From assembly GCA_035994985.1 (NCBI GenBank), contig DASYKZ010000013.1, forward strand, positions 1,834 through 65,833: a stretch of 64,000 nucleotides of DNA, written 5' to 3'. Source of the stretch: Minisyncoccota bacterium. Its GTDB lineage: Bacteria > Patescibacteriota > Minisyncoccia > Phycocordibacterales > UBA9973. The position numbers were made by a program, and so were the translations under genes. Positions 24,103 through 52,698 of this stretch are shown in pieces. The notes below the pieces were generated by a model that was not told where the DNA came from, did no database searches, and worked only from the letters and a program-made list of their open reading frames with translations. How positions within the stretch are numbered: the first letter of the stretch is position 1; each line of letters begins with the position of its first letter.

Positions 24103-25125
24103 TTGTATATTAAAATAATGAATATTTTAGATTTATTTCAAAAGCTATTCCACAATTTCAACTCTAGGGCGATGAAGGACGCCACCATAGCCTTCAAAAA
24201 ACATTTAGATGACGGCGGCAAGATGATGCTCGCCATGGGCGGAGCCATGTCTTCGGCGCAGATGGGCATCACGCTTGCGGCGATGATAAAAGAAAACAAG
24301 ATTCATGCCATTTCCTGCACTGGTGCAAACCTTGAAGAATCAGTTTTCAGGTTGGTAGCTCACGACAGCTACAAGGACTATCCCGACTATAGATATTTCA
24401 CCAAAGAAGACGACCAGAAAATTTTGGAAAGAGGCGAGCGCCGGGTGACGGATACATCCATACCCGAAGAAGAAGCTTTTCGCGTCGTCGAGCCGATTAT
24501 TTTAAAGCAATGGAAAGATGCCGAAGCCAAAGGCGAGCGGTACTTTCCGCACGAATATTTTTACCAAATTCTATTGTCGGACGACAAAGAAAATAGTTTG
24601 AAAGATAAATACGAAGGCAATCCGGAATACTGCTGGCTCTTGGAAGCAGCCAAGAAAAATCTTCCGATGGTGGTGCCGGGCTGGGAAGATTCCACTCTCG
24701 GAAACATTTTTGCCGGATACTGCAAGGCAGCAGATGGAGAAACAGGCGTCAGCCCGACCGTCATGAAGACTGGTGTGGAATATATGATGTCATTATACGA
24801 TTCATACATAGAGCTTTCTAAAGACGGGCCAGGGCTTGGATTTTTCCAAATTGGCGGCGGAATTGCTGGAGACTTTCCAATCTGCGTCGTGCCTTCCATA
24901 AAATATGATTTGAAAAAACCCGTGCGCCCGTGGGGATATTTCTGCCAGATTTCAGACTCTACTACTTCATATGGCTCATATTCCGGCGCGACGCCAAATG
25001 AAAAAATCACTTGGGACAAGCTGACCAAAGATACTCCGATGTTTGTCATAGAATCCGATGCCACCATCGTCGCTCCGCTCATCTTTGAAGCTATTTTAGA
25101 CAGGTATACTTTGAGCGAGAAATAA
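24103..25125 (+). CDS. deoxyhypusine synthase-like protein (DHS family)
   Basis: GGGIAGDF and SGATPNEKITWDKL resemble DHS GGGxxKH / SGARPDEAVSWGKI; TTG start in ORF track, alternative ATG 24118 preceded by TATATT-6 nt. Confidence 0.6.
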   Translation: MYIKIMNILDLFQKLFHNFNSRAMKDATIAFKKHLDDGGKMMLAMGGAMSSAQMGITLAAMIKENKIHAISCTGANLEESVFRLVAHDSYKDYPDYRYFTKEDDQKILERGERRVTDTSIPEEEAFRVVEPIILKQWKDAEAKGERYFPHEYFYQILLSDDKENSLKDKYEGNPEYCWLLEAAKKNLPMVVPGWEDSTLGNIFAGYCKAADGETGVSPTVMKTGVEYMMSLYDSYIELSKDGPGLGFFQIGGGIAGDFPICVVPSIKYDLKKPVRPWGYFCQISDSTTSYGSYSGATPNEKITWDKLTKDTPMFVIESDATIVAPLIFEAILDRYTLSEK

Positions 25126-25129
25126 AACC

Positions 25130-26095
25130 ATGAAAAGCGTTCTTAGATTTTTCATACTTCTCCTTATCTTGGGAGCTATTGTCTATCACTTTCGGGCAGA
25201 GCTTATGAATAAGTTTGAGCTCGCCAAGTCGCAAATTTTTCCAGACTCACCTTGCATAGAGCCTATACCGTATACACTCGGCACCTTTGATGCCAAGTTT
25301 GGAATTTCCAAAGAATACTTCCTCGGCGCTCTGGCCGACGCCGAGGCTGTCTGGGAAAAGCCGCAAGGAGACTATTCCGGTAAAAATCTTTTTGAATATG
25401 TTCCGGCGGATTCCGGCAATAGCGTCATGAAGTTAAATTTAATTTATGATTACCGCCAGCAGGCGACGAGCAAATTGAGCAGTCTCGGCATAGTCGTCAA
25501 TGACAATAGGGCTTCATACGATATGCTCAAGGCCAAATTTGATGCGCTCAAAATACAGCTTGATAAAGACAAGACTTCTTTCAATGCCAAAGTAGCGGCT
25601 TTCAACAGAAGGGGGCAGGCCTACGAAAAAGAAGTAAAATATTGGAATGCGAGGGGCGGCGCATCCGGAGAAGAATACAATAAACTCCAAGCGGAAAAAT
25701 CAGCCCTAGACATTGAGTCCAGACAAATACAAATTTTGCAAAACAATCTGAACGGAAAGACAGACGAGGTAAATGCACTCGTCGTCACTTTAAACAGGCT
25801 TATCACCTCGCTCAATCTTTCCGTCGAAAAATACAACACCACGAGCACCGCGCGCGGAGAGAGCTTTGAGGAAGGAGTGTATAGCAGCGATGGGTTGCGT
25901 AAGGAAATAGATATCTATGAATTTAGCAACCGCGCGAAGCTGGTGCGGGTGCTCGCGCACGAGCTTGGGCACTCGCTCGGCCTTGAGCATGTGGCTGACC
26001 CAAAAGCCATCATGTATAAATTAAACCAAGGCAACAGCGAAGCATTGACCGCGGACGATCTCGCCGCCTTACAAAAGCTTTGCGGTGTAAAATAG
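25130..26095 (+). CDS. zinc metalloprotease, matrixin/metzincin-like, membrane anchored
   Basis: HELGHSLGLEH (HExxHxxGxxH) motif; N-terminal TM; central coiled-coil. Confidence 0.75.
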   Translation: MKSVLRFFILLLILGAIVYHFRAELMNKFELAKSQIFPDSPCIEPIPYTLGTFDAKFGISKEYFLGALADAEAVWEKPQGDYSGKNLFEYVPADSGNSVMKLNLIYDYRQQATSKLSSLGIVVNDNRASYDMLKAKFDALKIQLDKDKTSFNAKVAAFNRRGQAYEKEVKYWNARGGASGEEYNKLQAEKSALDIESRQIQILQNNLNGKTDEVNALVVTLNRLITSLNLSVEKYNTTSTARGESFEEGVYSSDGLRKEIDIYEFSNRAKLVRVLAHELGHSLGLEHVADPKAIMYKLNQGNSEALTADDLAALQKLCGVK

Positions 26096-26220
26096 GGTGG
26101 TGTATAATTAGTGTATTATAAATATTTAATAAAATTGTGCCGCGTTTTAAGTCGCATCTAAACTGAGGACGCGACATGATTCAGCAGAATCAATTACGCG
26201 GCATGATTTCGCAAAATCAT

Positions 26221-26373
26221 ATGCTTACAACTATCGCAGCTGTTTTAATTGTTCTTTGGCTTATAGGGTATATAGGTTTTCCGGTATTGGGAAGCTTTGT
26301 GCATATCCTTCTTTTGATAGCCGTCATCTTCTTCCTCATCCGCATTATTCGCGGAGAAAACCCATTGAAATAA
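26221..26373 (+). CDS. small membrane protein, lmo0937-like family (paralog 1)
   Basis: MLTTIAAVLIVLWLIGYIGF...LLLIAVIFFLIRIIRG; 50 aa; paralog at 37606. Confidence 0.55.
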   Translation: MLTTIAAVLIVLWLIGYIGFPVLGSFVHILLLIAVIFFLIRIIRGENPLK

Positions 26374-26401: not shown

Positions 26402-26758
26402 ATGGATTCATTTACTTCACCGACCACAAAGCCATTGTACCGGGGCACGCAAGTCGTCTGGTATATCTTAGGTGTCTTGGAAATTTTATTGGCCTTTCGT
26501 TTTGCCCTAAAATTACTGGCGGCAAATCCAAATGCCGGATTTAGCAATTTTATTTATAAAGTTACCTATATTTTCGCAGCTCCATTTCTAAACGTATTTC
26601 AAATAAGCAGGGTAGAGGGCAGTATTTTTGAATGGACTACCATTCTTGCCATGCTCGTATATTGGCTCGTCGCCTGGGGCATCATCAAAATATTTCTTAT
26701 GAGCAAGAGCGTGTCCACTCCAGAAGCGGCAGTCAAACTGGAAAATCAGGAAAAATAA
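26402..26758 (+). CDS. YggT family membrane protein (paralog 1)
   Basis: LAFRFALKLLAANPNAGFSNFIYKVT..PFL YggT signature. Confidence 0.65.
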   Translation: MDSFTSPTTKPLYRGTQVVWYILGVLEILLAFRFALKLLAANPNAGFSNFIYKVTYIFAAPFLNVFQISRVEGSIFEWTTILAMLVYWLVAWGIIKIFLMSKSVSTPEAAVKLENQEK

Positions 26759-26771
26759 CTCTAATAAATAC

Positions 26772-28046
26772 ATGAATACAAAAGTTAAAAAATTAATAGC
26801 GATAATTCTCGCATTGATTATTTTGGCAGGCATAGGTTTTATTATTTTCAAGAAACATATCGGCGGTATCAGCATCCCAAGCAGGACGGACAATATTGCC
26901 AAGCAAAATCCTGCCGGCGGGGAAGAGGTTTCTTTTTTAAAAGCTCCGGACGGTTTCCGGGTCAGCTTGTATGCCAAGGGTTTGCCGGGTGCGCGGGTTA
27001 TCGAAATCGACCCCAAAGGGCGTATATTAGTTTCCGAAACAAGTGAAGGCAAGATAATGGCACTGTCGGACACAGATAGTGACGGCGTTGCCGACCAGCA
27101 AAAAGTTTTACAAAGCGGGCTTGAAAGTCCCCATGGCATGGCTTTCAAGTGCGCCGAAGACAACAGTGACAATTGTTCTCTATATGTAGCCGAAAGAAAT
27201 CAGCTTGTCCGTTTCTCATATGACGCCGACGGTCCCTCTCTCGGCAAAAAGGAAGTGCTTATGGGCATAAGTTCAGCCATTACCGACCACCATTTTACAA
27301 GGTCGCTTCTTTTCCTGCCTTCTCCGAACGAAGACACACTGCTTGTTTCCGTCGGCTCTTCCTGCAATATCTGCAATGAAAAAGATACCGACCATGCTTC
27401 TATACTTTCTTACAACATAAAAACCGGCAAAAAAGAAGTGTATGCCAAGGGCCTCCGCAATGCCACGTTTATGGCCTTGAGTCCCGTTAGTGGAAAAGTG
27501 TTTGCCACAGAGATGGGGCGCGATAGCCTCGGCGATAATATTCCACCGGATGAAATAAATATAATCAATGGAAATAGCCCTTCGGCAAGCTCAGGACAAA
27601 ATTCGATTCCGAATTTTGGTTGGCCGATTTGCTATGGCAAGCAGATACACGATACCCAGTTTGACAAGAAACAATATTTCCGCGACCCTTGCAGTGACAC
27701 CGTTCCTTCTTTTATAGATTTACAGGCGCATTCCGCCCCGCTCGGGCTTTCGTTTGTTCCTGAAAGTCCGCCAACTGGCGGATGGCCGGAAGATTATTGG
27801 TACAACATGCTCGTCGCCTATCATGGCTCTTGGAACCGCTCTACACCCACTGGATATAAAATAGTGCGAATAAAAATGAACGCTAAAGGCGAATACCTCG
27901 GCACCGAAGATTTCATCACTGGATTTCTAAATTCTGATGGAAAAAAGAATGGCCGCCCCGTGGAAATAAAAATTCTCTCTGGCGGTGTAGCTTATATTTC
28001 CGATGATAGCGCCGGAGCTGTTTACAAGTTATCCGTAGTACAGTAA
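26772..28046 (+). CDS. membrane-anchored beta-propeller protein, PQQ-dependent sugar (glucose/sorbosone) dehydrogenase-like
   Basis: ESPHGMAF, YKIVRI, VAYISDDSAGAVYKL propeller-blade motifs. Confidence 0.45.
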   Translation: MNTKVKKLIAIILALIILAGIGFIIFKKHIGGISIPSRTDNIAKQNPAGGEEVSFLKAPDGFRVSLYAKGLPGARVIEIDPKGRILVSETSEGKIMALSDTDSDGVADQQKVLQSGLESPHGMAFKCAEDNSDNCSLYVAERNQLVRFSYDADGPSLGKKEVLMGISSAITDHHFTRSLLFLPSPNEDTLLVSVGSSCNICNEKDTDHASILSYNIKTGKKEVYAKGLRNATFMALSPVSGKVFATEMGRDSLGDNIPPDEINIINGNSPSASSGQNSIPNFGWPICYGKQIHDTQFDKKQYFRDPCSDTVPSFIDLQAHSAPLGLSFVPESPPTGGWPEDYWYNMLVAYHGSWNRSTPTGYKIVRIKMNAKGEYLGTEDFITGFLNSDGKKNGRPVEIKILSGGVAYISDDSAGAVYKLSVVQ

Positions 28047-28080
28047 ATTTATCAGAACAAAAGATGTGTTATAATAGAGT

Positions 28081-28296
28081 ATGTTTCAAAATTATTTACT
28101 TAAAAAGATGCTTCGCACTCAAGGCGTGCCGCCGGGGCAAATCGATGCCTTTGTCACCATGATTGAAAAAAATCCTGAGCTTTTCAAAAAGATTGCCGCT
28201 GAAGTAGAGGGGAAAGTAAAAGGGGGAATGGACCAAATGCAGGCCGGCATGGAAGTCATGCAGAAATACCAAGACGAGCTCAAGAAATTGGTCTAA
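28081..28296 (+). CDS. hypothetical small protein
   Basis: 71-aa ORF with ordinary composition. Confidence 0.3.
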   Translation: MFQNYLLKKMLRTQGVPPGQIDAFVTMIEKNPELFKKIAAEVEGKVKGGMDQMQAGMEVMQKYQDELKKLV

Positions 28297-28324
28297 AACC
28301 TTATTTAAAAAAGATACATAGGTT

Positions 28325-28376
28325 ACTTGTCAATTACTTGACAATTAAATATAGATTGGTTTACAATTGGTTTACA
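28325..28376 (+). promoter_or_regulatory. operator-like repeats upstream of island gene: imperfect inverted repeat ACTTGTCAA/TTGACAAT plus tandem perfect 11-mer ATTGGTTTACA x2
   Basis: 28355-28365 and 28366-28376 identical; TACAAT -10-like element embedded. Confidence 0.45.
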
Positions 28377-28380
28377 ATCT

Positions 28381-29430
28381 ATGTTAACAAAAACCGAAAT
28401 ATTAAAAATAGCGAAAGAGAAGGATAAACTTTACTCTAAGGATTTAGTGTTGCAGTTTAAGGTCTCTAGGCAATATGTTAATCTTTTGATATCCATGCTA
28501 GTCGGAGAGCGTAAACTTGTAAAAATCGGCTCTACAAGAAAAGCATTTTACGTTCTTCCTGAATACGCACAAAAACATCAAGAAATATTTCCGCTTATAT
28601 ATTCTAAATCATTTAAAAATGAGGGACTTGAAGAGCATAGAGTTATAAGTCAAATAGAAGAGACTTTCCCGACATTAAAAAATCTTCCAGAAAACATACG
28701 TAGTATTTTTACCTATGCGTTTTCAGAAATGTTTAACAATGCAATTGAGCACTCCAAATCTGTGCGTATAGGGGTAGAAGTATCTATCCCTAAAAAAGAA
28801 CTTTCTTTCATTATACAAGACTCAGGCATAGGCGTTTTTCGTAACGTTATGAAGGAGCGAGGTCTAAAGTCTGAAATAGAAGCAATTCAAGATATTTTAA
28901 AAGGAAAGACGACAACTATGCCCAAATCTCATTCAGGTGAAGGTATATTTTTTACGTCAAAGTCTGGAGATGTTTTTATTCTCGATAGTTTTGGTTATCA
29001 ATTAATTGTAAATAATAAGACACCAGATGTTTTCATAAAGACTGTTAGAAAAATAAAAAGAGGCACTCGGGTAATGTTTAAAATCTCTGCTTTATCAGAT
29101 AGACATTTACAAGATGTTTTTAAAAAATATACAAACCTAGATGATAAAAGTGATTATGGTTTTGACAAGACGGAAATAAGAGTGAAACTTTATACTATTG
29201 GCGGTGTCCATATTTCTCGTTCACAAGCACGGCGAGTCTTAGACGGTCTTGAAAAATTCAAGATAATTGTTTTTGATTTTGAGCAAGTTTCTACGGTAGG
29301 ACAGGCATTTGCTGATGAAGTTTTTAGAGTTTTTCATCATAAATATCCAAAGATTAAGCTTGAAGTAGAAAATATGAATGAGGGGGTAAAATTTATGATT
29401 GAAAGAGCACAGAATGAAGCTTCCATATAA
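28381..29430 (+). CDS. wHTH - GHKL (histidine-kinase-like) ATPase - STAS-like (DUF4325-like) fusion protein
   Basis: N-box FNNAIEHS, G1 DSGIGV, G2 GEGIFF; C-terminal STAS-like segment; N-terminal winged helix. Confidence 0.6.
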   Translation: MLTKTEILKIAKEKDKLYSKDLVLQFKVSRQYVNLLISMLVGERKLVKIGSTRKAFYVLPEYAQKHQEIFPLIYSKSFKNEGLEEHRVISQIEETFPTLKNLPENIRSIFTYAFSEMFNNAIEHSKSVRIGVEVSIPKKELSFIIQDSGIGVFRNVMKERGLKSEIEAIQDILKGKTTTMPKSHSGEGIFFTSKSGDVFILDSFGYQLIVNNKTPDVFIKTVRKIKRGTRVMFKISALSDRHLQDVFKKYTNLDDKSDYGFDKTEIRVKLYTIGGVHISRSQARRVLDGLEKFKIIVFDFEQVSTVGQAFADEVFRVFHHKYPKIKLEVENMNEGVKFMIERAQNEASI

Positions 29431-29447
29431 GTATTAAAATTATAAAC

Positions 29448-30074
29448 ATGCCACACATTTTATTACATATTACTGACCCGGAAAAGATTTACTCAGAAAT
29501 TTCAAAAGCCCTTTTACCGCACAAGGAAAAAGAGGTTGCTTCCATGGTCTTTATCGTCGAAGGTTCTCTCGAAAATCCACGAATCGCCATACGATATCCC
29601 GGCAGAAAATTAGTAAAGAGAAACCTCACCTATCCGAGGGCAAACTCATCCCTATGGGCAAATCTTCTTGATTTTGAAGTGATTCCTTTCAATCAAGGTG
29701 AACAAGGAAACTCTAAAATTTTTACGTACGCAAATTTACTTAAAGACTTTGAGCTGTATAAAAAAGATAATAATCTTTTTTGGCAGATGCTGGAGGAACT
29801 ATATAATAAAAATACGATTACCAAAGAGCCACCAAAGCTTGAGGGTATAGACTCAAGACAATTTTTAGAAATGCTCAAATGGATGTGGCTTCAGGAAGAT
29901 TTAAATTACAAATTGTCTTGGCAGGAAGTCGGCTCTGAAATACCATATAGACTTCAAAATAAAACAGGAGGTCTTACCAGCAAGGGTGCCGGACGTGCAA
30001 AATTTTTTGCCGCTCTTGTTCTACTTAAAAACAATTACTTTGATTATAATACTGTTAGAAAAATAATACCTTAA
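29448..30074 (+). CDS. hypothetical protein, 208 aa (candidate restriction endonuclease partner of convergent MTase)
   Basis: Stop codon overlaps stop of convergent MTase gene by 4 nt; no recognisable motif. Confidence 0.45.
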   Translation: MPHILLHITDPEKIYSEISKALLPHKEKEVASMVFIVEGSLENPRIAIRYPGRKLVKRNLTYPRANSSLWANLLDFEVIPFNQGEQGNSKIFTYANLLKDFELYKKDNNLFWQMLEELYNKNTITKEPPKLEGIDSRQFLEMLKWMWLQEDLNYKLSWQEVGSEIPYRLQNKTGGLTSKGAGRAKFFAALVLLKNNYFDYNTVRKIIP

Positions 30075-31171
30075 GCTATTTTCTTGCCGCGCGGCCCTAG
30101 TTTATGAGTTTCGTCTATATAGCCCTTTTTTAAACGGTCATTTATGATGTCGCAATATTTTTTATCAATTTCTGCAGATATAAAGTTGCGATTCAGTTTT
30201 TTACAAACATCTATTTCTGCACCGCTCCCGCCAAAGAGAACAAAGACTGTATCTTTTGGCTTCGTCGCCCCTTTGATTAGCATCTCCGTCAATTTCTGAG
30301 GAATTTGGCAGGCGTGATTAGTTTTTTCTTTACTTACATTTTTTACCAGATTAAATTCAAACCAAGAGTACGGCATCCTGCCCTTGGAGCCATTTGCTAT
30401 ATTTTGCTTTACTCTTTTGTCCGTCGGATTTTTATAAGGAAGCGCCACAGCATCTTTGAAAAATTTATTGTGAGCACTTTTCCGTACGTGTAAAATACTT
30501 CGATGAGCTGTGGTAAATCTCCTCGGCGTATGTCCTACGTTTGTATTGTACACCCAGACATATTCATTGATATTTGGAAAAAGTAAATCAAGATACTTCA
30601 CCCGCAAGTGCGCATTCTGCTTGGGGTAATTGAGCATAAAAAGATTACCATCGGGCTTGAGGACACGCATAGACTCTTTAGTTAACTCTATATACCAGTT
30701 TATATAATCTTCAAATTTTCTAGTGTAATTATTTTCATTGTACTTTATGCCTACATTGTAATCAGGATCACCAAAAATCATATCTACACTGTTGTCTGGT
30801 AAATTTTTTAAAACGTGCATGACATCTCCGTTGTAAACTTTGTTCAAGTAATCAGATACTTTACCTTTTTCTTTCAAGTTATTTTTAACGGGCAGTATGA
30901 AGCCTGGAGTAACCATAGTATCTTGCTGTGACATTAAGTCCTTCATTGATTTCAATAGACGAATTGAGTGTTTTACACCTTTTTCTTTTACCAGATAGCC
31001 TTTCCTTTCTAAATAATCTACGTGTTGGTGCGCAGTAGGGATAGATACATTAAAATGACCTGCTATGTCACTTAAAGCAGGGGAATAGCTGTTTTTTTGT
31101 TGGAATTTATCCAAGTAATCAAAAAGCTGCGCTTGTTTTTTTGTAAGTTGTGAGTTTAATATTTTTGACAT
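30071..31171 (-). CDS. beta-class N4-cytosine/N6-adenine DNA methyltransferase with N-terminal LexA-like wHTH
   Basis: Motif IV variant MIFGDPDYN precedes motif I VLFGGSGAE (beta permutation); HTH SDIAGHFNVSIPTAHQHVDYLERKGYL; alternative upstream start 31228. Confidence 0.8.
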   Translation of the reverse strand: MSKILNSQLTKKQAQLFDYLDKFQQKNSYSPALSDIAGHFNVSIPTAHQHVDYLERKGYLVKEKGVKHSIRLLKSMKDLMSQQDTMVTPGFILPVKNNLKEKGKVSDYLNKVYNGDVMHVLKNLPDNSVDMIFGDPDYNVGIKYNENNYTRKFEDYINWYIELTKESMRVLKPDGNLFMLNYPKQNAHLRVKYLDLLFPNINEYVWVYNTNVGHTPRRFTTAHRSILHVRKSAHNKFFKDAVALPYKNPTDKRVKQNIANGSKGRMPYSWFEFNLVKNVSKEKTNHACQIPQKLTEMLIKGATKPKDTVFVLFGGSGAEIDVCKKLNRNFISAEIDKKYCDIINDRLKKGYIDETHKLGPRGKKIA

Positions 31172-31177
31172 ATATGT

Positions 31178-31227
31178 ACTGTATATTATAATACCTAAAC
31201 ATAACCTAAACAAGAGGTTTATCCACA
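31178..31227 (-). promoter_or_regulatory. MTase promoter/operator: TATAAT -10, direct repeats GTTTAGGT x2, and a perfect DnaA box TTATCCACA (31219-31227)
   Basis: Minus-strand reading: ttgtggataaacctcttGTTTAGGTtatGTTTAGGTatTATAATatacagtacatataATG. Confidence 0.45.
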
Positions 31228-31331
31228 AGAACAGGATTAAAAAGCACTGAAGCTCAATTAAGATGGTTGCGGTAGGGGGGGATTGAAGTTATAGAGTTTT
31301 TTAAGTATAATTCATAAAGCGAAATAATTTA

Positions 31332-33185
31332 ATGCGATATATAGGAAATAAGACAAGACTAATTAACAACATATCTGATTTTGTTAAAGATAATAATATA
31401 AAAGGTAAATCTTTTTGTGATATTTTTTCGGGCACAGGCAGCGTGAGTGATTTTTTTAAATCAGATTATAAGATAATAGCGAACGATTTCTTATTTTGTT
31501 CAGCAGTAATAACAAGAGCCAAAATATATAATAACAAGGAACCGAAATTTAAAAAATTTGTAGATAAATATGGGATAGACCCATTTAATTATTTTAGAAA
31601 TAAAACACATATTTACAAAAAACATTATTTTGTTACAAATAACTATTCACCAAAAGCAAATCGTAAATTTTTTTCCGAAGAAAACTCTATTGCGATAGAC
31701 TCGATTAGAATTGAAATTGAAGAAATTTATAAAAATTTTATTTTTGATGAGAAAGAGTATTATTTTTTGTTGGGAAGTTTGCTGGAAAGTGTAATGAGTT
31801 TTTCTAATACAAGTGGTACCTATGAAGCATTTCTCAAAACATGGGACAAAAGAGCTCTAAAAAAGTTTTTTTTATCTCCAATTAAAATCAATGAAACTAA
31901 GGTTGTAAATGTTGATAATAAAGTATATAACGAAGACGCTAATTCTTTAATTAGAAAAATTGGTGGCGATGTGCTGTACATAGACCCCCCTTACACAATT
32001 ACAGAATATTCATCTGCTTATCATGTATTAGAAACTATTGCTCGTTATGATTATCCTGAAGTAGCTGGAATTACTGCACGCAGAATAGATAATGATAAAA
32101 AATCATCTTATACAAGAGTAAAGACTGCACTCATGTCTTTCGAAGATTTAATAAGACAAGCTCAGTTTAACGATATAATCATAAGTTATAGCAATCAGTC
32201 AATTATACCCTTAAAAGAATTAGAAAAAATGTTATCTCGTTATTCTATAGATGGAAAAATTAACAAAAAACTTATTAATTATAGAGAGTATAGAAACATC
32301 CGCTCAAGCAAAAAAACTCCAGGATTGTTTGAGGTTTTAATTCATATTAAGAAGAACAATGAAATTATTAAGTCTCCCTTGAATTATTCTGGAAGCAAAG
32401 ATAATTTAATGAATCAAATTCATAAGTACTTACCGGAACATATAACCACTTTTGTTGATGTGATGGGAGGAGCTTTTAATGTAGGGGTAAATATTATTGC
32501 TGATGAAGTTATTTATAATGAGTACAATCCTTTTGTTTATGAATTGATAAAAAAATTATTGAAATCAAATTCAAAAGAAACTATAAAATATATAGAAAAT
32601 AAAATTAGTATACATTCCTTAAAGAAAGGTAACTCACTAAAGTATAATATTTTCAGAAATATATATAACAAATCTAAAAAATCGTTAGATTTGTTTATTC
32701 TAACAACCTTTTGTTTTCAAAATCAAATACGGTTTAATTCGTCTCTAGATTTCAATACACCAGTTGGGAATTGTGCGTATAACTCGACTATTCGAGATAG
32801 GCTTGAAAAATTCAAACCAAAAACAAAAAAAATAAGATTTTTAAATGAAGATTTTTTGAAGATAAATTTTAATAAATACGACAAAGAAATATTATTTTAT
32901 TTTGATCCACCTTATTTTATTACTAATGCAACCTATAATGATGGAAAAAGGGGATTTAATGGTTGGGATGCAGATTTAGAGGCAAAAATGTTAGAATACA
33001 TTTCAGCTGTTCATAATGGCGGTTTCAGATTTATTCTATCAAACATTTTATACCATAAGAATAAAGAAAATCATTTATTATTAGAATGGATAGAGTCACA
33101 CAATTTTAACATTGTTGAATTACAACACCCCACTCGAAAGGAGGTTTTAATTACTAACTATAATTTAAATAATGGTATAAGATAA
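31332..33185 (+). CDS. fused tandem Dam-like (D12-class) N6-adenine DNA methyltransferase (two complete MTase domains in one polypeptide)
   Basis: Domain 1: YIGNKTRL..FSGTGSV and IDPPY; domain 2: YSGSKDNL..MGGAFNVG and FDPPY. Confidence 0.8.
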   Translation: MRYIGNKTRLINNISDFVKDNNIKGKSFCDIFSGTGSVSDFFKSDYKIIANDFLFCSAVITRAKIYNNKEPKFKKFVDKYGIDPFNYFRNKTHIYKKHYFVTNNYSPKANRKFFSEENSIAIDSIRIEIEEIYKNFIFDEKEYYFLLGSLLESVMSFSNTSGTYEAFLKTWDKRALKKFFLSPIKINETKVVNVDNKVYNEDANSLIRKIGGDVLYIDPPYTITEYSSAYHVLETIARYDYPEVAGITARRIDNDKKSSYTRVKTALMSFEDLIRQAQFNDIIISYSNQSIIPLKELEKMLSRYSIDGKINKKLINYREYRNIRSSKKTPGLFEVLIHIKKNNEIIKSPLNYSGSKDNLMNQIHKYLPEHITTFVDVMGGAFNVGVNIIADEVIYNEYNPFVYELIKKLLKSNSKETIKYIENKISIHSLKKGNSLKYNIFRNIYNKSKKSLDLFILTTFCFQNQIRFNSSLDFNTPVGNCAYNSTIRDRLEKFKPKTKKIRFLNEDFLKINFNKYDKEILFYFDPPYFITNATYNDGKRGFNGWDADLEAKMLEYISAVHNGGFRFILSNILYHKNKENHLLLEWIESHNFNIVELQHPTRKEVLITNYNLNNGIR

Positions 33186-33190
33186 CAAAT

Positions 33191-34552
33191 ATGGAAGAAA
33201 ATATACTTAAAATAAATAAAAAATTTTACGACTCACTAAGTGAAGGTGATAACAAGAAAGTATTAAAAATTTATGGATATAACTCGCCAGACGAATTCTT
33301 ATCTGGCGTAATTAGTAAGTTGAATGAGGAATACAGTTTCTTGAAAATAAATAAGTTTAATTTTTTATCTACTGAGGAGATCGTCGACTATCATACATAC
33401 AACGGATTTATTAGTGGTAAATTTGTTGATTATGATTTAATCACAGTATCCTTTACTACAATAAAAGGTAAAGAAGGAAATGTGTTTATGAGTCAGCAAG
33501 TTATGCCGATGATAACGAGTAAGTTAAAAAATGATAAAAAATTTATATTGAGCAATAGAGTAAAGAAAATATGCTTACTAACAACACATAAATCTGATAT
33601 TTACTCACCTGACAAGAATATAATAACTGATAGTGGTATTTCAAATATTCAGATGAGTGTTAAATATATAAATACGATAGGCTTTGACATAGTTGATATT
33701 TTCCATATTAAGAACCTAAGCACGAAATCAAGATACTATAATATCGATGAATTAATTGATCACTCAAATTATTTACAGAAAAAAAATCCAACAAACTCAC
33801 AATTTCAACAAATAACAAAAAAAGATTATGTATATAGTGCTGATTTTGAAAATGAACCAGTTGGACAAGAAGTTAAATTTTTTGCCTTAAAATTATATGC
33901 AGCAGTTATTTTATTAAAAGGCAGAAATATCCATATTGATAATGCATTACAGAAAAGCAATGATATTACTCTGCAGGTTTTAAATGATTTTATTCAATAT
34001 CTCTTAAACATTGATATATCTTTATACAATATATTCAAGGATTTATCCGAAGAAATAGAATATGAGACAGAAATTGACACAAGTACAATGCCTGAAGAAG
34101 CAGTTAGACCTAAAAAAGATGATTCCATGCCTGGTCATAAACAACAACCAATATATAGCTTTAATGCAAAAGGACGAAAAATATACAAAACACAAAGAAT
34201 ATTCAAAAAGAATGCATTTGAAATTCATGGTTATTTTTGTGCTTGCCATGAAGAAAAACATTATTATTTCACATCTGAGGCAACTAATAAAAAATACGTT
34301 GAGGGTCATCACATGATACCAATGGAGTTCCAAGATCAATATTGGAAAGATAGGCAAATTAATCTTGATTGCACTATTAATTTAATTCCACTTTGCTCTC
34401 ATTGTCATGGGAAAATACATAAGTCCATTAAACCTGAACGAGTGCAGATAATCACAGAAGTTTATAATAAACACAAAGATCAACTACTTACAATAGATAG
34501 TAAACTTACATTTGATAAGTTCGCAGAACTCTATAACGTCTATATTTACTAA
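33191..34552 (+). CDS. putative restriction endonuclease with C-terminal HNH nuclease domain
   Basis: YVEGHHMIP...NLIPLCSHCHGKIH HNH motif; large N-terminal putative recognition domain; immediately downstream of MTase. Confidence 0.7.
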   Translation: MEENILKINKKFYDSLSEGDNKKVLKIYGYNSPDEFLSGVISKLNEEYSFLKINKFNFLSTEEIVDYHTYNGFISGKFVDYDLITVSFTTIKGKEGNVFMSQQVMPMITSKLKNDKKFILSNRVKKICLLTTHKSDIYSPDKNIITDSGISNIQMSVKYINTIGFDIVDIFHIKNLSTKSRYYNIDELIDHSNYLQKKNPTNSQFQQITKKDYVYSADFENEPVGQEVKFFALKLYAAVILLKGRNIHIDNALQKSNDITLQVLNDFIQYLLNIDISLYNIFKDLSEEIEYETEIDTSTMPEEAVRPKKDDSMPGHKQQPIYSFNAKGRKIYKTQRIFKKNAFEIHGYFCACHEEKHYYFTSEATNKKYVEGHHMIPMEFQDQYWKDRQINLDCTINLIPLCSHCHGKIHKSIKPERVQIITEVYNKHKDQLLTIDSKLTFDKFAELYNVYIY

Positions 34553-34638
34553 AATCGTAGGAGTATTTTAATTGTTTTAATTTTTAAATAAGTTTCAACA
34601 TTGCCCCAAACTCTCAACAACTATGCTAAAATTATTCA

Positions 34639-35034
34639 ATGTTATTGAATAGAATTTTGGATTTCAATATACTTGTACTGCGGAAGAAAAAGTATACACG
34701 GTGGGACTATAAAAAATACAAGGAGGAAGCTCGGGCTTTGGTTCGTGAGAAGATTGCCCGACTGAATGCGCACTATGGTTTCAAAGTAGGGAAGGTGGCG
34801 ATACGGGATACAAAGTCCCGCTGGGGCAGCTGCTCAAAGCAGGGGAATTTGAATTTCAATTATAAAATTTTATTTCTTCCGTCGCATATTGCCGACTATA
34901 TTATTGCGCACGAATTGTGCCATTTGAAGGAATTTAATCATTCTGTAAACTTTTGGAACTTGGTCAATGAGGTGGCACCAAATCACAAGGCTATCCGGGC
35001 CGAACTCAAGCGGACTGCGCATCTTTACCGATAA
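34639..35034 (+). CDS. YgjP/DUF45 family (M48-like zinc metallohydrolase), short/N-terminally truncated
   Basis: WGSCS..., HELCHLKEFNHSVNFW motif; in-frame stop 4 codons upstream of ATG. Confidence 0.55.
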   Translation: MLLNRILDFNILVLRKKKYTRWDYKKYKEEARALVREKIARLNAHYGFKVGKVAIRDTKSRWGSCSKQGNLNFNYKILFLPSHIADYIIAHELCHLKEFNHSVNFWNLVNEVAPNHKAIRAELKRTAHLYR

Positions 35035-35111
35035 AAAATTGTAATTAATTTGTATTTTATACGTCTTATATTATTATAAGGTCGCTTTTATTAATCAACA
35101 ATAATAAAAAC

Positions 35112-35459
35112 ATGAATTCTTATAATTATATAACTACAGAAGAAAAAGTTTACGACGAAGGGCTGGTCACCTGGTATCTCCTTGATTTGGTCCAGCTTCT
35201 TTTAATATTCCGCTTCTTCTTAAAGCTTGCCGGCGCAAACCCTGTCGGCATGTTTACGAATTTTATTTATCAGGTTACAAATGTGCTCGTCTCTCCGTTT
35301 GTCGGCATTGCAAACTCCATATCCATACAAAATGCCGGAGTGTTTGAGTGGAGTTCTTTCTTTGCCATATTTGTGTATTATCTCGTGGCTGTAGCTATAA
35401 TCAGGCTCTTTTTTACGAGCAGAGTAGTCTCGCTGCACCAGCAGGCCCAAGTAAAATAA
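35112..35459 (+). CDS. YggT family membrane protein (paralog 2)
   Basis: LIFRFFLKLAGANPVGMFTNFIYQVTNVLVSPFV. Confidence 0.65.
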   Translation: MNSYNYITTEEKVYDEGLVTWYLLDLVQLLLIFRFFLKLAGANPVGMFTNFIYQVTNVLVSPFVGIANSISIQNAGVFEWSSFFAIFVYYLVAVAIIRLFFTSRVVSLHQQAQVK

Positions 35460-35463
35460 TCTT

Positions 35464-35598
35464 ATGATTACCAAACGCAAAGAGGGATACCATGTGGTTT
35501 CCGAGAAGGGGAAGAACCTAGGCGGGCCATATAAGACCCGGGCAGAGGCGGCAAAGCGCTTACAGCAGGTGGAGTACTTTAAGCACAAAAAGAAATAA
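35464..35598 (+). CDS. small basic hypothetical protein (44 aa; MITKRKEGYHVVSEKGKNLGGPYKTRAEAAKRLQQVEYFKHKKK)
   Basis: Found by eye, not in ORF track (<60 aa). Confidence 0.3.
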   Translation: MITKRKEGYHVVSEKGKNLGGPYKTRAEAAKRLQQVEYFKHKKK

Positions 35599-37605: not shown

Positions 37606-37761
37606 ATGCTTACAACAATCGCAATCGTTTTAGTCGCGCTATGGCTTCTGGGCTTCGTTGGTTTTCACGTGCTCGGCAGCTTTATTCATATTCTTTTGGT
37701 AATAGCGATTATCCTTTTCCTCGTACGCCTTATCCAAGGGAGGAATCCTATAGCCAGCTAG
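37606..37761 (+). CDS. small membrane protein, lmo0937-like family (paralog 2)
   Basis: MLTTIAIVLVALWLLGFVGFHVLGSFIHILLVIAIILFLVRLIQGRNPIAS; ~70% nt identity to 26221-26373. Confidence 0.55.
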   Translation: MLTTIAIVLVALWLLGFVGFHVLGSFIHILLVIAIILFLVRLIQGRNPIAS

Positions 37762-40599: not shown

Positions 40600-42165
<1,566 letters not shown>

Positions 42166-42326
42166 ATTTGAAAAATATCCCAATTTTAATTTATTAGAAT
42201 TGTGTATACCACCCGTTGGTATCGGATTTATTGAGTCGGTATTGTGTAGCTCAATTGACTACACAATGGAAAATAATAGAACTTCCTAAAAACTATTTGG
42301 CCGGAAGGAAAGACTTCTAAGTTATA

Positions 42327-51531: not shown

Positions 51532-52698
51532 GTGAAATACTTATTAATAAAAATATTTTGGTTTTTTGGAAGACCGGTGCAAAAATTATATTGGTTTATA
51601 TTTCGACCAACCTTAAGGGGTGTTAAATGTATTATTGAAAATAATGACAAGTTTTTACTAGTGAAATTAAACTATGCTCACCACAAATGGATAATTCCTG
51701 GCGGAGGGATCAAAAAGAATGAGTCATCTTTACAAGCGGTCATTAGAGAAACTAAAGAAGAAGTCGGTATTGATATAAAAGATTTAGTGTATATAGGTTC
51801 ATATATAAGCCAAAAAGATTATAAAGAAACTATTGTTGAGATTTTCCTCACTAATTCAGATATACTAGATACTAAGATAGATCCAATAGAAATTGAAAAG
51901 GCTGAATGGTTTGAAAGATCAAATTTTCCTGAAAATATTGGCGTTTCAATTCCTAAAGTTTTTAAAATATATGACGAATTTAGACTTAAAAAAAATAATA
52001 AAATTGCGAAAAAACGAGATTTTATAATTGAATTCAATGATAAAAAAATATATGGAGACATTATTTCCAAAGATTCTCAAATAGATATTTTATTTATTCA
52101 CGGCGCCGGCACTACAAACAGAGTACGATATGAACAATTTAGAGGATTTCTTGCTTCAAAAAATATTTCTTCAGCTATGGTCGACCTTATCGGTCATGGT
52201 GAAACTGGAGGCGATATTAAAAATACCAGTTTACAAGAAAGGACAGAAGAAATTTTAGCTGTTGTAAAGGATTTGAAAATTGAGACACCTCTTAAAATTA
52301 TCGCATTTAGCATGGGAGGATACAACGCCATAAAACTTACTGAACTTTTAGAGGTAGAACTTCTGGTTTTATTTGCCCCGGCAGTATATGACACAAGAGC
52401 TCGTGAGGTAAAATTTGGAGCAGGTTTTTCTGAAATTATTAGAAGCGAATATAGCTGGCAAAAAAGCGATGCATGGAATATATTAGATACATATAAAGGA
52501 AAACTATTGCTGTGCATAGGAGATAAAGATGATGTGATACCTTTTGAGATTGTTCAGACAATATATGATAGTGCAAAAAATGCAAAGTATAAGGAAATAT
52601 TTATTATGCCGGAAAGCGGACATAAGGTAAGCTTATATTTGAAAGAAAAACCTGATATGATGGAGATTGTTACTCAAAAAATAATAAAACTTCTATAA
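51532..52698 (+). CDS. NUDIX hydrolase - alpha/beta hydrolase fusion protein
   Basis: NUDIX box GGGIKKNESSLQAVIRETKEEVGIDI; C-terminal HGAG...FSMGG (GxSxG)...D...H triad. Confidence 0.65.
   Translation: MKYLLIKIFWFFGRPVQKLYWFIFRPTLRGVKCIIENNDKFLLVKLNYAHHKWIIPGGGIKKNESSLQAVIRETKEEVGIDIKDLVYIGSYISQKDYKETIVEIFLTNSDILDTKIDPIEIEKAEWFERSNFPENIGVSIPKVFKIYDEFRLKKNNKIAKKRDFIIEFNDKKIYGDIISKDSQIDILFIHGAGTTNRVRYEQFRGFLASKNISSAMVDLIGHGETGGDIKNTSLQERTEEILAVVKDLKIETPLKIIAFSMGGYNAIKLTELLEVELLVLFAPAVYDTRAREVKFGAGFSEIIRSEYSWQKSDAWNILDTYKGKLLLCIGDKDDVIPFEIVQTIYDSAKNAKYKEIFIMPESGHKVSLYLKEKPDMMEIVTQKIIKLL

Follow-up and report, generated by a model that had tools for sequence, protein, structure and literature searches.

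Among the described systems closest to the genes treated here are DNA methyltransferases (MTases) with a regulatory N-terminal helix-turn-helix (HTH) domain, such as M.SsoII, M.EcoRII and M.MspI, and the FokI-type MTases, whose two adenine MTase domains, joined in a single protein, indicate an asymmetric recognition site with an adenine on each strand; the cleavage domain of FokI is of the PD-(D/E)XK type. A Type II restriction-modification (R-M) system controlled by a C protein is represented by the PvuII circuit (PMC2175313), and in M.HpyAV, located ahead of an HNH nuclease, two MTase domains are fused (PMC2816704). Furthermore, CapK (HTH-STAS-GHKL) has been described as a kinase activated by single-stranded DNA (ssDNA) which phosphorylates the repressor CapS (STAS-wHTH, bearing a winged HTH), thereby inducing adjacent immune operons; directly before the CapK/CapS pair, in 88 of 443 cases, an R-M system is found (Chambers et al., EMBO J 2026, PMC13373217). 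Genes with likeness to these systems lie together in a 6.3-kb AT-rich stretch (28.3-34.6 kb) of a metagenome-assembled Candidatus Paceibacterota (candidate phyla radiation, CPR) genome, of which 64 kb, in the following termed the window, were studied. As a whole, this block is quite probably best explained as three unrelated mobile cassettes placed side by side in a variable chromosomal spot, with the five genes g1 to g5 (aa, amino acids; nt, nucleotides) arranged as follows.

Cassette 1, 28303-29433: g1, a stand-alone sensor-kinase-like gene
g1 promoter-operator, 28303..28380, + strand: four 7-bp boxes plus -35/-10, conserved in four genomes
g1, 28381..29430, + strand: wHTH (residues ~1-60), SpoIIAB/RsbW-type GHKL ATPase/kinase (~75-240) and STAS-like DUF4325 (~265-349)
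Cassette 2, 29448-31235: g2 and g3, R-M system 1
g2, 29448..30074, + strand: 208 aa, predicted restriction endonuclease of R-M system 1, orphan family
g3, 30071..31171, - strand: beta-class N6/N4 MTase with N-terminal LexA-type winged HTH, convergent with g2 at a 4-nt overlap
g3 promoter-operator, 31172..31235, - strand: right end of cassette 2
Cassette 3, 31322-34554: g4 and g5, R-M system 2
g4, 31332..33185, + strand: one polypeptide with two Dam-like (D12, alpha-class) N6-adenine MTase domains, a FokI/LlaI-type fusion
g5, 33191..34552, + strand: predicted restriction endonuclease of system 2; N-terminal domain (~300 aa) specific to the family, C-terminal HNH (beta-beta-alpha-Me) domain with a CxC/CxxC zinc site

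An earlier sequence-only reading had proposed a single acquired defence island at 28300-35050, made up of two R-M modules, an ATPase module and a terminal YgjP-like gene. Its six open reading frames (ORFs), g1 to g6, are all present at the positions given here and below, and its domain calls are upheld. The GC drop that it had noticed in 28.3-34.6 kb is confirmed by sliding-window analysis, with values of 0.312 within 28300-35050 versus 0.425 for the rest of the window and of about 0.31 over the AT-rich stretch itself. Outside the block, 1-kb windows have a mean GC of 0.425 (standard deviation 0.036) and inside they range from 0.26 to 0.33, while the five lowest-GC 6.75-kb windows of the whole 64 kb all begin at 27751-28751. 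Hence, foreign-looking AT-rich DNA between host-like flanks is found as proposed. Its right edge, however, lies at ~34.56-34.69 kb and not at 35.05 kb, leaving the host-like g6 outside.

The composition within the block is not uniform. GC at third codon positions (GC3) is 0.24 for g1, 0.33 and 0.36 for g2 and g3, and 0.21 and 0.23 for g4 and g5, compared with 0.42-0.56 for host genes. Moreover, when the window was aligned by blastn with all loci collected in the analysis (numbered with the prefix L), DNA homology ran from 28303 or 28327 to 29420 for cassette 1 (loci L005-L010, 69-75% nucleotide identity), from 29457 to 31235 for cassette 2 (L042-L121) and from 31322 to 34554 for cassette 3 (L011-L016). 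Because of these three GC3 classes and of homology to unrelated genomes that ends at the cassette edges, three separate cassettes of different composition and history have to be distinguished, and the proposal of one acquired island is abandoned.

This is in line with the gene content of two loci, L079 and L121, from relatives of the window organism (72-80% nucleotide identity in the housekeeping flanks), in which only cassette 2 is present, whereas g1, g4, g5 and g6 are absent from both. L121 is collinear with the window at 18.2-25.1 kb and has g2-g3 inserted between homologs of 24103-25125 and 25130-26095, genes that are 4 nt apart in the window, i.e., cassette 2 sits at another chromosomal site in this relative. 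In L079, the order is YggT, a small gene, an ORF, a 71-aa gene, an IMS polymerase, g2 and g3, and past g3 about 5 kb of unrelated genes precede a homolog of the small gene located at 35458-35595 in the window. As the two relatives have g2-g3 alone, this pair can be considered an older, moving resident of the lineage to which g1 and g4-g5 are additions. The comparison with related genomes suggested in the sequence-only reading has provided genome fragments without g1, g4 and g5, but no block-free strain for defining the insertion site.

Several results speak against mobile cassettes. Boundary markers were not found, as a tRNA scan of the window gave no tRNA gene, scans for direct and inverted repeats gave no convincing flanking repeats at any boundary, and no integrase or recombinase is among the window ORFs. 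For a block-free strain, GTDB genomes were searched with the left-flank GSDH-like protein, but in the 11 loci obtained downstream synteny was not kept, and exact-protein look-ups of both flank genes returned only the same strain with the same block. Of the classical signs of a genomic island, therefore, integrase, tRNA gene and direct repeats are missing, whereas deviant composition and variable presence in relatives are found. The missing integrase, tRNA gene and direct repeats, together with the presence of the block in all sampled instances of the strain, would also suit an explanation by which the low GC is intrinsic, as a consequence, for example, of relaxed selection or of a local mutation bias acting on resident genes, and does not stem from horizontal acquisition. 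This is scarcely probable, as homologs with 70-87% protein identity are found in varying contexts in archaea and in further phyla, homology ends at the cassette edges, relatives are without two of the cassettes and have the third at another site, and GC3 is 0.1-0.3 below that of the neighbouring genes.

The restriction gene of system 1 can be deduced from gene linkage. Homologs of g2 (~209 aa, 55-68% identical) occur in Patescibacteria, Omnitrophica and Aenigmatarchaeota, and 80 further g2-bearing loci were obtained from four look-ups and a metagenome scan. In 72 of these, a g3-type MTase is convergent with and abutting g2 (MTase domain 68-90% identical to g3), in five a different 616-aa N6_N4 MTase is located upstream, and the other three end at contig ends. 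Directly before g2, a 61-73 aa HTH_3 gene is present in 39 of the 80 loci, which is the classical C-protein position. Due to this linkage to a convergent MTase and a C gene, g2 is assigned as the restriction gene that R-M system 1 had seemed to lack, and cassette 2 represents a Type II R-M system with g2 as the putative nuclease. The claim of two R-M modules consequently stands, with g2+g3 as the first and g4+g5 as the second.

The sequence-only reading had instead left the 208-aa protein to a two-gene uncharacterised ATPase module together with g1, in which case g3 would be a solitary or otherwise partnered MTase. Indeed, g1 and g2 are co-oriented at a distance of 17 nt with no predicted terminator between them, and both are without PADLOC match. 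Nevertheless, such a defence module is highly improbable, since g1 homologs or other DUF4325 genes are found in none of the 80 g2 loci, in stark contrast to the convergent MTase, and g2 homologs in none of the four independent g1 contexts. In addition, DNA homology to other g1 loci ends at 29420 and that to g2 loci begins only at 29457, and in L079 and L121 it is an IMS polymerase and a YggU gene that are directly upstream of g2.

The protein encoded by g2 has no match in Pfam, NCBIfam, PADLOC or PDB sequences; a search by PDB sequence and profile and by tblastn against plasmids returned nothing, and Pfam applied to 16 diverse family members (g2 and 15 relatives) assigned no family. A HMMER search over 1.84 billion representatives gave 46 matches and no larger family. 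Despite a confident structure model, no recognised nuclease fold or motif (PD-(D/E)XK, HNH, GIY-YIG, PLD or half-pipe) is detected. Among the positions invariant in the family are Tyr, Trp, Glu and Arg. Without a detectable nuclease fold or motif and with invariant residues compatible with base-flipping chemistry, g2 might be thought to be an accessory protein of a solitary MTase with a role in repair, specificity or regulation, or a DNA glycosylase acting as restriction enzyme like R.PabI, the half-pipe restriction glycosylase among the closest known systems. This alternative is rather improbable, considering that a C gene, g2 and a convergent M gene form the canonical layout of a toxic restriction gene and that the strong GATC depletion described below implies a selective cost of unmethylated sites; besides, the glycosylase version would still be a restriction enzyme.

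The partner of g2, the MTase g3, was correctly recognised as an HTH-fused beta-class enzyme. Pfam assigns N6_N4_Mtase (3e-36) and LexA_DNA_bind (2e-8), PADLOC the model MTase_II (2e-118), and motif IV (DPDY, residue 135, unchanged in 62 of 62 homologs) precedes motif I (FGGSG at 313), corresponding to beta order. The nearest solved structure is M.BceJIV. Within the g3 promoter (-35 TTGTTT, 17-nt spacer, -10 TATAAT, ATG ~13 nt past the -10), a tandem GTTTAGGT repeat is located between the hexamers. The region 5' of the ATG is conserved in the window, L079 and L121, with homology ending at ~31235, and on account of this conservation in the two relatives ATG 31171 is taken as the start codon of g3. 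This arrangement suggests autoregulation, i.e., while methylation of the target would be the task of g3, the LexA-type HTH of this enzyme probably acts as repressor at the g3 promoter via the tandem GTTTAGGT repeats. The g2 gene, present in a short form without a promoter region of its own, would be read through from the upstream gene, here g1. A perfect 12/12 sigma-70 consensus (TTGACA, 16-nt spacer, TATAAT) is also found at 31165-31192 on the + strand, facing g4 and opposite to g3; it shares sequence with the g3 start codon and with an imperfect palindrome of 32 nt (31157-31188) within the conserved g3 promoter region and may be a divergent or antisense promoter.

System 1 resembles known R-M systems with C proteins or HTH-MTases in the convergent arrangement of g2 and g3, in the HTH_3 gene before the restriction gene of many relatives, and in the N-terminal DNA-binding domain of g3 accompanied by repeats in its own promoter. 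It differs in that g2 belongs to no described nuclease family or fold, and in that the HTH of g3 is of LexA type, is joined by a complete S24 autopeptidase in most relatives and is combined with DPDY, not DPPY, as motif IV. In most of the homologous systems the MTase is fused to a full LexA-like module of LexA_DNA_bind and Peptidase_S24 (~490 aa), as in the following examples.

L036, 4630-6123, - strand: S24-bearing MTase
L001, 6605-8074: S24-bearing MTase
L038, 4608-6101: S24-bearing MTase
L042-L120, most of these loci: S24-bearing MTase

As judged from these domains, self-cleavage triggered by RecA in an SOS response could part the repressor domain from the MTase in the S24-bearing forms. 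The window, L079 and L121 have a short MTase form with HTH but without S24, and no C gene; unlike C-protein systems, the short form in the window is thus devoid of both a C gene and a promoter for the nuclease gene.

A possible target of system 1 emerges from the tetranucleotide composition. In the window, GATC is by far the most under-represented tetranucleotide, with 35 sites versus 161 expected (ratio 0.22, z=-14), and its depletion extends to the host flanks.

Host flanks: observed/expected 0.14 and 0.26
g2-g3: 1 site of 5.1 expected
g4-g5: 5 sites of 8.6 expected

Pooling 39 loci that carry g2 and measure 5 kb or more gives a ratio of 0.42, compared with 0.81 for 17 control loci (Mann-Whitney p=1.2e-6); in 28 of the 39 g2 loci, no other palindromic 4-mer is as strongly depleted as GATC. 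No depletion is found in L014-L016, three loci of one organism bearing g5 homologs (ratio 0.93-1.23). Since GATC is depleted in the window and in g2 loci but not in these g5-homolog loci, it is assigned to g2/g3 and is, with moderate confidence, the likely target of this pair. Some caution is demanded by the fact that GATC avoidance is common in prokaryotes, that the controls are genome fragments which may carry g2 elsewhere in their genomes, and that many of the g2 loci come from the same few studies and are perhaps not independent. The roughly five-fold depletion, which includes the host flanks, indicates that GATC restriction has acted on this lineage for a long time. In its GATC target read from depletion, and in the depletion of this site across the host, g2 would be comparable to enzymes of the MboI, DpnII and Sau3AI types; in contrast to DpnII and MboI, it is smaller (208 aa), shows no sequence similarity to this family or to any PDB chain, and its predicted specificity derives from depletion. 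As target of g4-g5, GATC was rejected owing to the lack of depletion in L014-L016, and GGATC is not preferentially missing in the window.

Cassette 3 is a second R-M system. The tandem Dam-like fusion and the HNH endonuclease deduced in the sequence-only reading are both supported, the former by two D12 domains and the latter by an invariant motif and a profile match to McrA. For g4, Pfam reports MethyltransfD12 in two stretches (2.7e-58) and PADLOC the model PDLC03287 over the full length (3e-204). Both halves keep a SAM-binding (S-adenosylmethionine) motif resembling FxGxG and a DPPY motif, the former with SGTG and GGA as motif I candidates and the latter at residues 218 and 525. Fused Dam-type MTases encoded on plasmids of lactic acid bacteria share 35-45% identity with g4. 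Like g2, g5 has no match in Pfam, NCBIfam, PADLOC or PDB sequences. An alignment of its homologs (34 found, 39-87% identical) reveals an invariant block CxC..H..EGHH..N..N..CxxCH..H at residues 350-410, comprising C350, C352, H357, H373, H374, N391, N397, C402, C405, H406 and H410. The family profile matches the HNH domain of McrA (6ghc, E 1e-3), and the C-terminal 180 residues match plasmid-borne HNH endonucleases (tblastn, 1e-9 to 1e-11) as well as PHROG HNH families. In all three other contexts (L011, L012 and L014, representing a Flavobacteriaceae metagenome-assembled genome, in which a C gene is also found, a Patescibacteria contig and a third organism), a g5 homolog directly follows a 617-629 aa double-D12 MTase on the same strand, at 48-58% identity. 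PADLOC, recommended earlier as a check, has recognised both MTases of the block but neither nuclease nor g1.

With two D12 domains in one MTase, g4 corresponds to the FokI/StsI/LlaI-type fusions, and system 2 is probably Type IIS-like with an asymmetric site, a reading that derives solely from the two-domain MTase. Each Dam-like half of g4 would methylate the adenine of one strand, and g5 would bind DNA by its N-terminal domain and cut by its C-terminal HNH domain. A search for this site gave no significantly depleted asymmetric 5-mer or 6-mer in the 64 kb. In being located on the same strand after its MTase and in combining an N-terminal recognition part with a C-terminal HNH domain, g5 is similar to HNH Type II/IIS nucleases such as HpyAV, Hin4II, MnlI, HphI, Eco31I and KpnI, although its N-terminal domain matches no characterised enzyme; unlike FokI, its nuclease domain is HNH. 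HpyAV and Hin4II were considered as model for g4-g5 and rejected, as their MTases combine C5 and N6A domains (PMC2816704), in contrast to the two N6A domains of g4. In addition, on a Bartonella plasmid (L041:3741-5156) two separate Dam-type MTases homologous to the g4 halves are followed by a 471-aa protein without HNH region, which weakly resembles g5 in the N-terminal domain (25% over 159 aa, pairwise E 0.001). This protein and g5 may share a recognition domain paired with a different nuclease.

Cassette 1 consists of g1 only, whose wHTH-GHKL-STAS architecture was found as predicted. Pfam matches the STAS-like domain DUF4325 and, below threshold, HATPase_c, and the Bergerat fold displays N, G1 and G2 boxes of the SpoIIAB/RsbW-type GHKL proteins. 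About 65 bp 5' of g1 are co-conserved in four independent genomes (window, L005, L007 and L122). They contain boxes TTGTCAA, TTGACAA, TTTACAA and TTTACAA at -54, -43, -21 and -10 from the ATG (consensus across g1 homologs TTG(A/T)CAA or TTTACAA), overlapping a promoter with -35 TTGACA, 18-nt spacer and -10 TACAAT (scan score 11/12; ATG ~8 nt past the -10). No second occurrence of the box motif is found in the 64-kb window, including the regions upstream of the R-M genes. The g1 family is very large (>6686 matches), and homologs 70-86% identical are distributed across CPR classes, Deltaproteobacteria and Margulisbacteria, whereas relatives in viral contigs reach only 35-37% identity at best.

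In all four independent genomes, i.e., the window and three others, the neighbours of g1 differ. A Kerfeldbacteria genome has truB/GreA-type housekeeping genes, a Margulisbacteria genome SnoaL and DUF5674 genes, and in L122-L131 a HinfI-type R-M system and a PD-(D/E)XK gene are on one side with a second MTase and a small candidate nuclease on the other. Directly 3' of g1, the window has g2, and the other contexts have truB, SnoaL or an MTase. Hence, g1 is a self-contained single-gene mobile cassette with its own promoter. In one L122-type locus an extra 312-aa gene (L125:3535-4473) directly follows the g1 homolog, and the spot beside g1 is therefore itself variable. One same-strain assembly (SRR11678609) is broken within g1 (L029 end, L031 start), a break that fits g1 being a near-identical repeat shared by multiple genomes of the community.

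By analogy with related regulators, g1 would be an autonomous, autoregulated gene for a protein joining a DNA-binding wHTH, an anti-sigma-type GHKL kinase/ATPase and a STAS-like domain. It is most likely a switchable repressor, in which a signal-triggered, ATP-dependent interaction of GHKL and STAS-like domains would free the wHTH from the four-box operator; self-repression with release gated by its own GHKL and STAS-like domains is our best guess. At variance with this, the classical STAS phospho-acceptor position, T305, varies between T, M, L, V and E across the family.

As g2 begins 17 nt after the g1 stop in the same orientation and has no upstream region of its own, it is probably co-transcribed with g1. 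One could go further and regard g1 as controller of g2 here, a single-chain analogue of the damage-sensing pair CapK/CapS replacing the C protein, with the restriction enzyme requiring derepression of the g1 promoter, for example, by ssDNA or an ATP signal. In this sense, g1 takes the position of the C gene known from 39 of the 80 homologous systems upstream of a g2 without own upstream region, L122-L131 have a g1 homolog flanked by two R-M systems, the conserved operator overlaps g1's own promoter, and the control of adjacent immune operons by CapK/CapS and the occurrence of that pair right after R-M systems would provide a precedent (PMC13373217). Like CapK/CapS, VapKSC and the partner-switching pairs SpoIIAB-SpoIIAA and RsbW-RsbV, g1 is built of HTH, anti-sigma-type GHKL kinase and STAS modules, and with CapK/CapS it shares the vicinity to R-M systems, an autoregulatory layout and promoters beside immune genes that it would bind or neighbours. 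However, a controller function for g2 is unlikely. In two of the four g1 contexts, the neighbourhood is a housekeeping one (truB; SnoaL), and short-form g2 is equally tight behind unrelated housekeeping genes in L079 and L121, from which the coupling of g1 and g2 appears incidental. Moreover, hhalign aligns the g1 profile with CapK over just 55 residues from the GHKL N-box to the G1 box (E 1.6e-3, probability 16%) and gives nothing for CapS. Unlike CapK, g1 is a single protein with the order wHTH-GHKL-STAS, no capS-type partner gene follows it in any of the four contexts, and its STAS-like domain is DUF4325 without conserved phospho-Ser, in contrast to the absolutely conserved Ser on STAS helix 2 that serves as phospho-acceptor in the CapK/CapS regulators (PMC13373217). 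With g1 taken as an independent cassette, its location upstream of the nuclease gene is probably incidental, yet it would tie the transcription of g2 to the promoter of g1.

At the right edge of the block, one further ORF had been counted as island cargo.

g6, 34639..35034, + strand: YgjP-like (DUF45) metallopeptidase ORF, C-terminal half of the domain with intact HELCH

With GC 0.42 and GC3 0.51, g6 is within the host range and, given this composition, is a host remnant or short host gene and not R-M cargo. It is not full-length, covering positions 106-206 of 207 of the YgjP-like Pfam profile (2e-36), and in-frame stop codons are found upstream. A 76-aa YgjP-like fragment also lies beside a Zincin_1 gene about 3 kb from the g1 homolog of the Margulisbacteria locus (L007:10321-10551), and such short YgjP-like ORFs may be a common form and not the result of truncation. 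Two YggT paralogs (26402-26758 and 35112-35459; 84% and 40% identity to the single YggT of L079) flank the region, and a small DUF5670-like gene is present in two copies (26176-26373 and 37606-37761). Elsewhere in the window, a complete bacterial 16S rRNA gene is located at 40600-42168 on the + strand (Rfam 1356 bits; 89% identical over 835 nt to the end of L109), while 23S and 5S genes were not found at threshold anywhere in the window. A second low-GC patch (~0.30) at 51532-52698 on the + strand corresponds to a NUDIX/alpha-beta-hydrolase fusion gene between two Mur ligase genes, which may be another acquired gene.

Taken together, the region is a real, horizontally assembled, R-M-rich variable spot of ordinary kind with two moderately novel parts, the g2 family and the g1 cassette, and the basic picture, that of ordinary kinds of system, is unchanged. 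A more far-reaching view would be that g2 founds a structurally new class of GATC-specific Type II restriction enzymes (nuclease or glycosylase) that is widespread in CPR bacteria and DPANN archaea and invisible to current R-M and defence annotation, and that g1 is a mobile single-chain relative of the CapK/CapS logic which has captured g2 transcription here; this is possible but doubtful. New nuclease folds and reagents come mainly from restriction enzymes, and the g2 family, being compact (208 aa) and having a confident model, no fold match and a predicted GATC site, provides a concrete candidate for characterisation. The LexA-HTH MTase, with S24 in most relatives, and the g1 cassette with its operator would link R-M control to damage-responsive immunity regulation. 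As standard defence-finding models would score both R-M systems as orphan MTases, the defence content of CPR genomes is probably under-counted.

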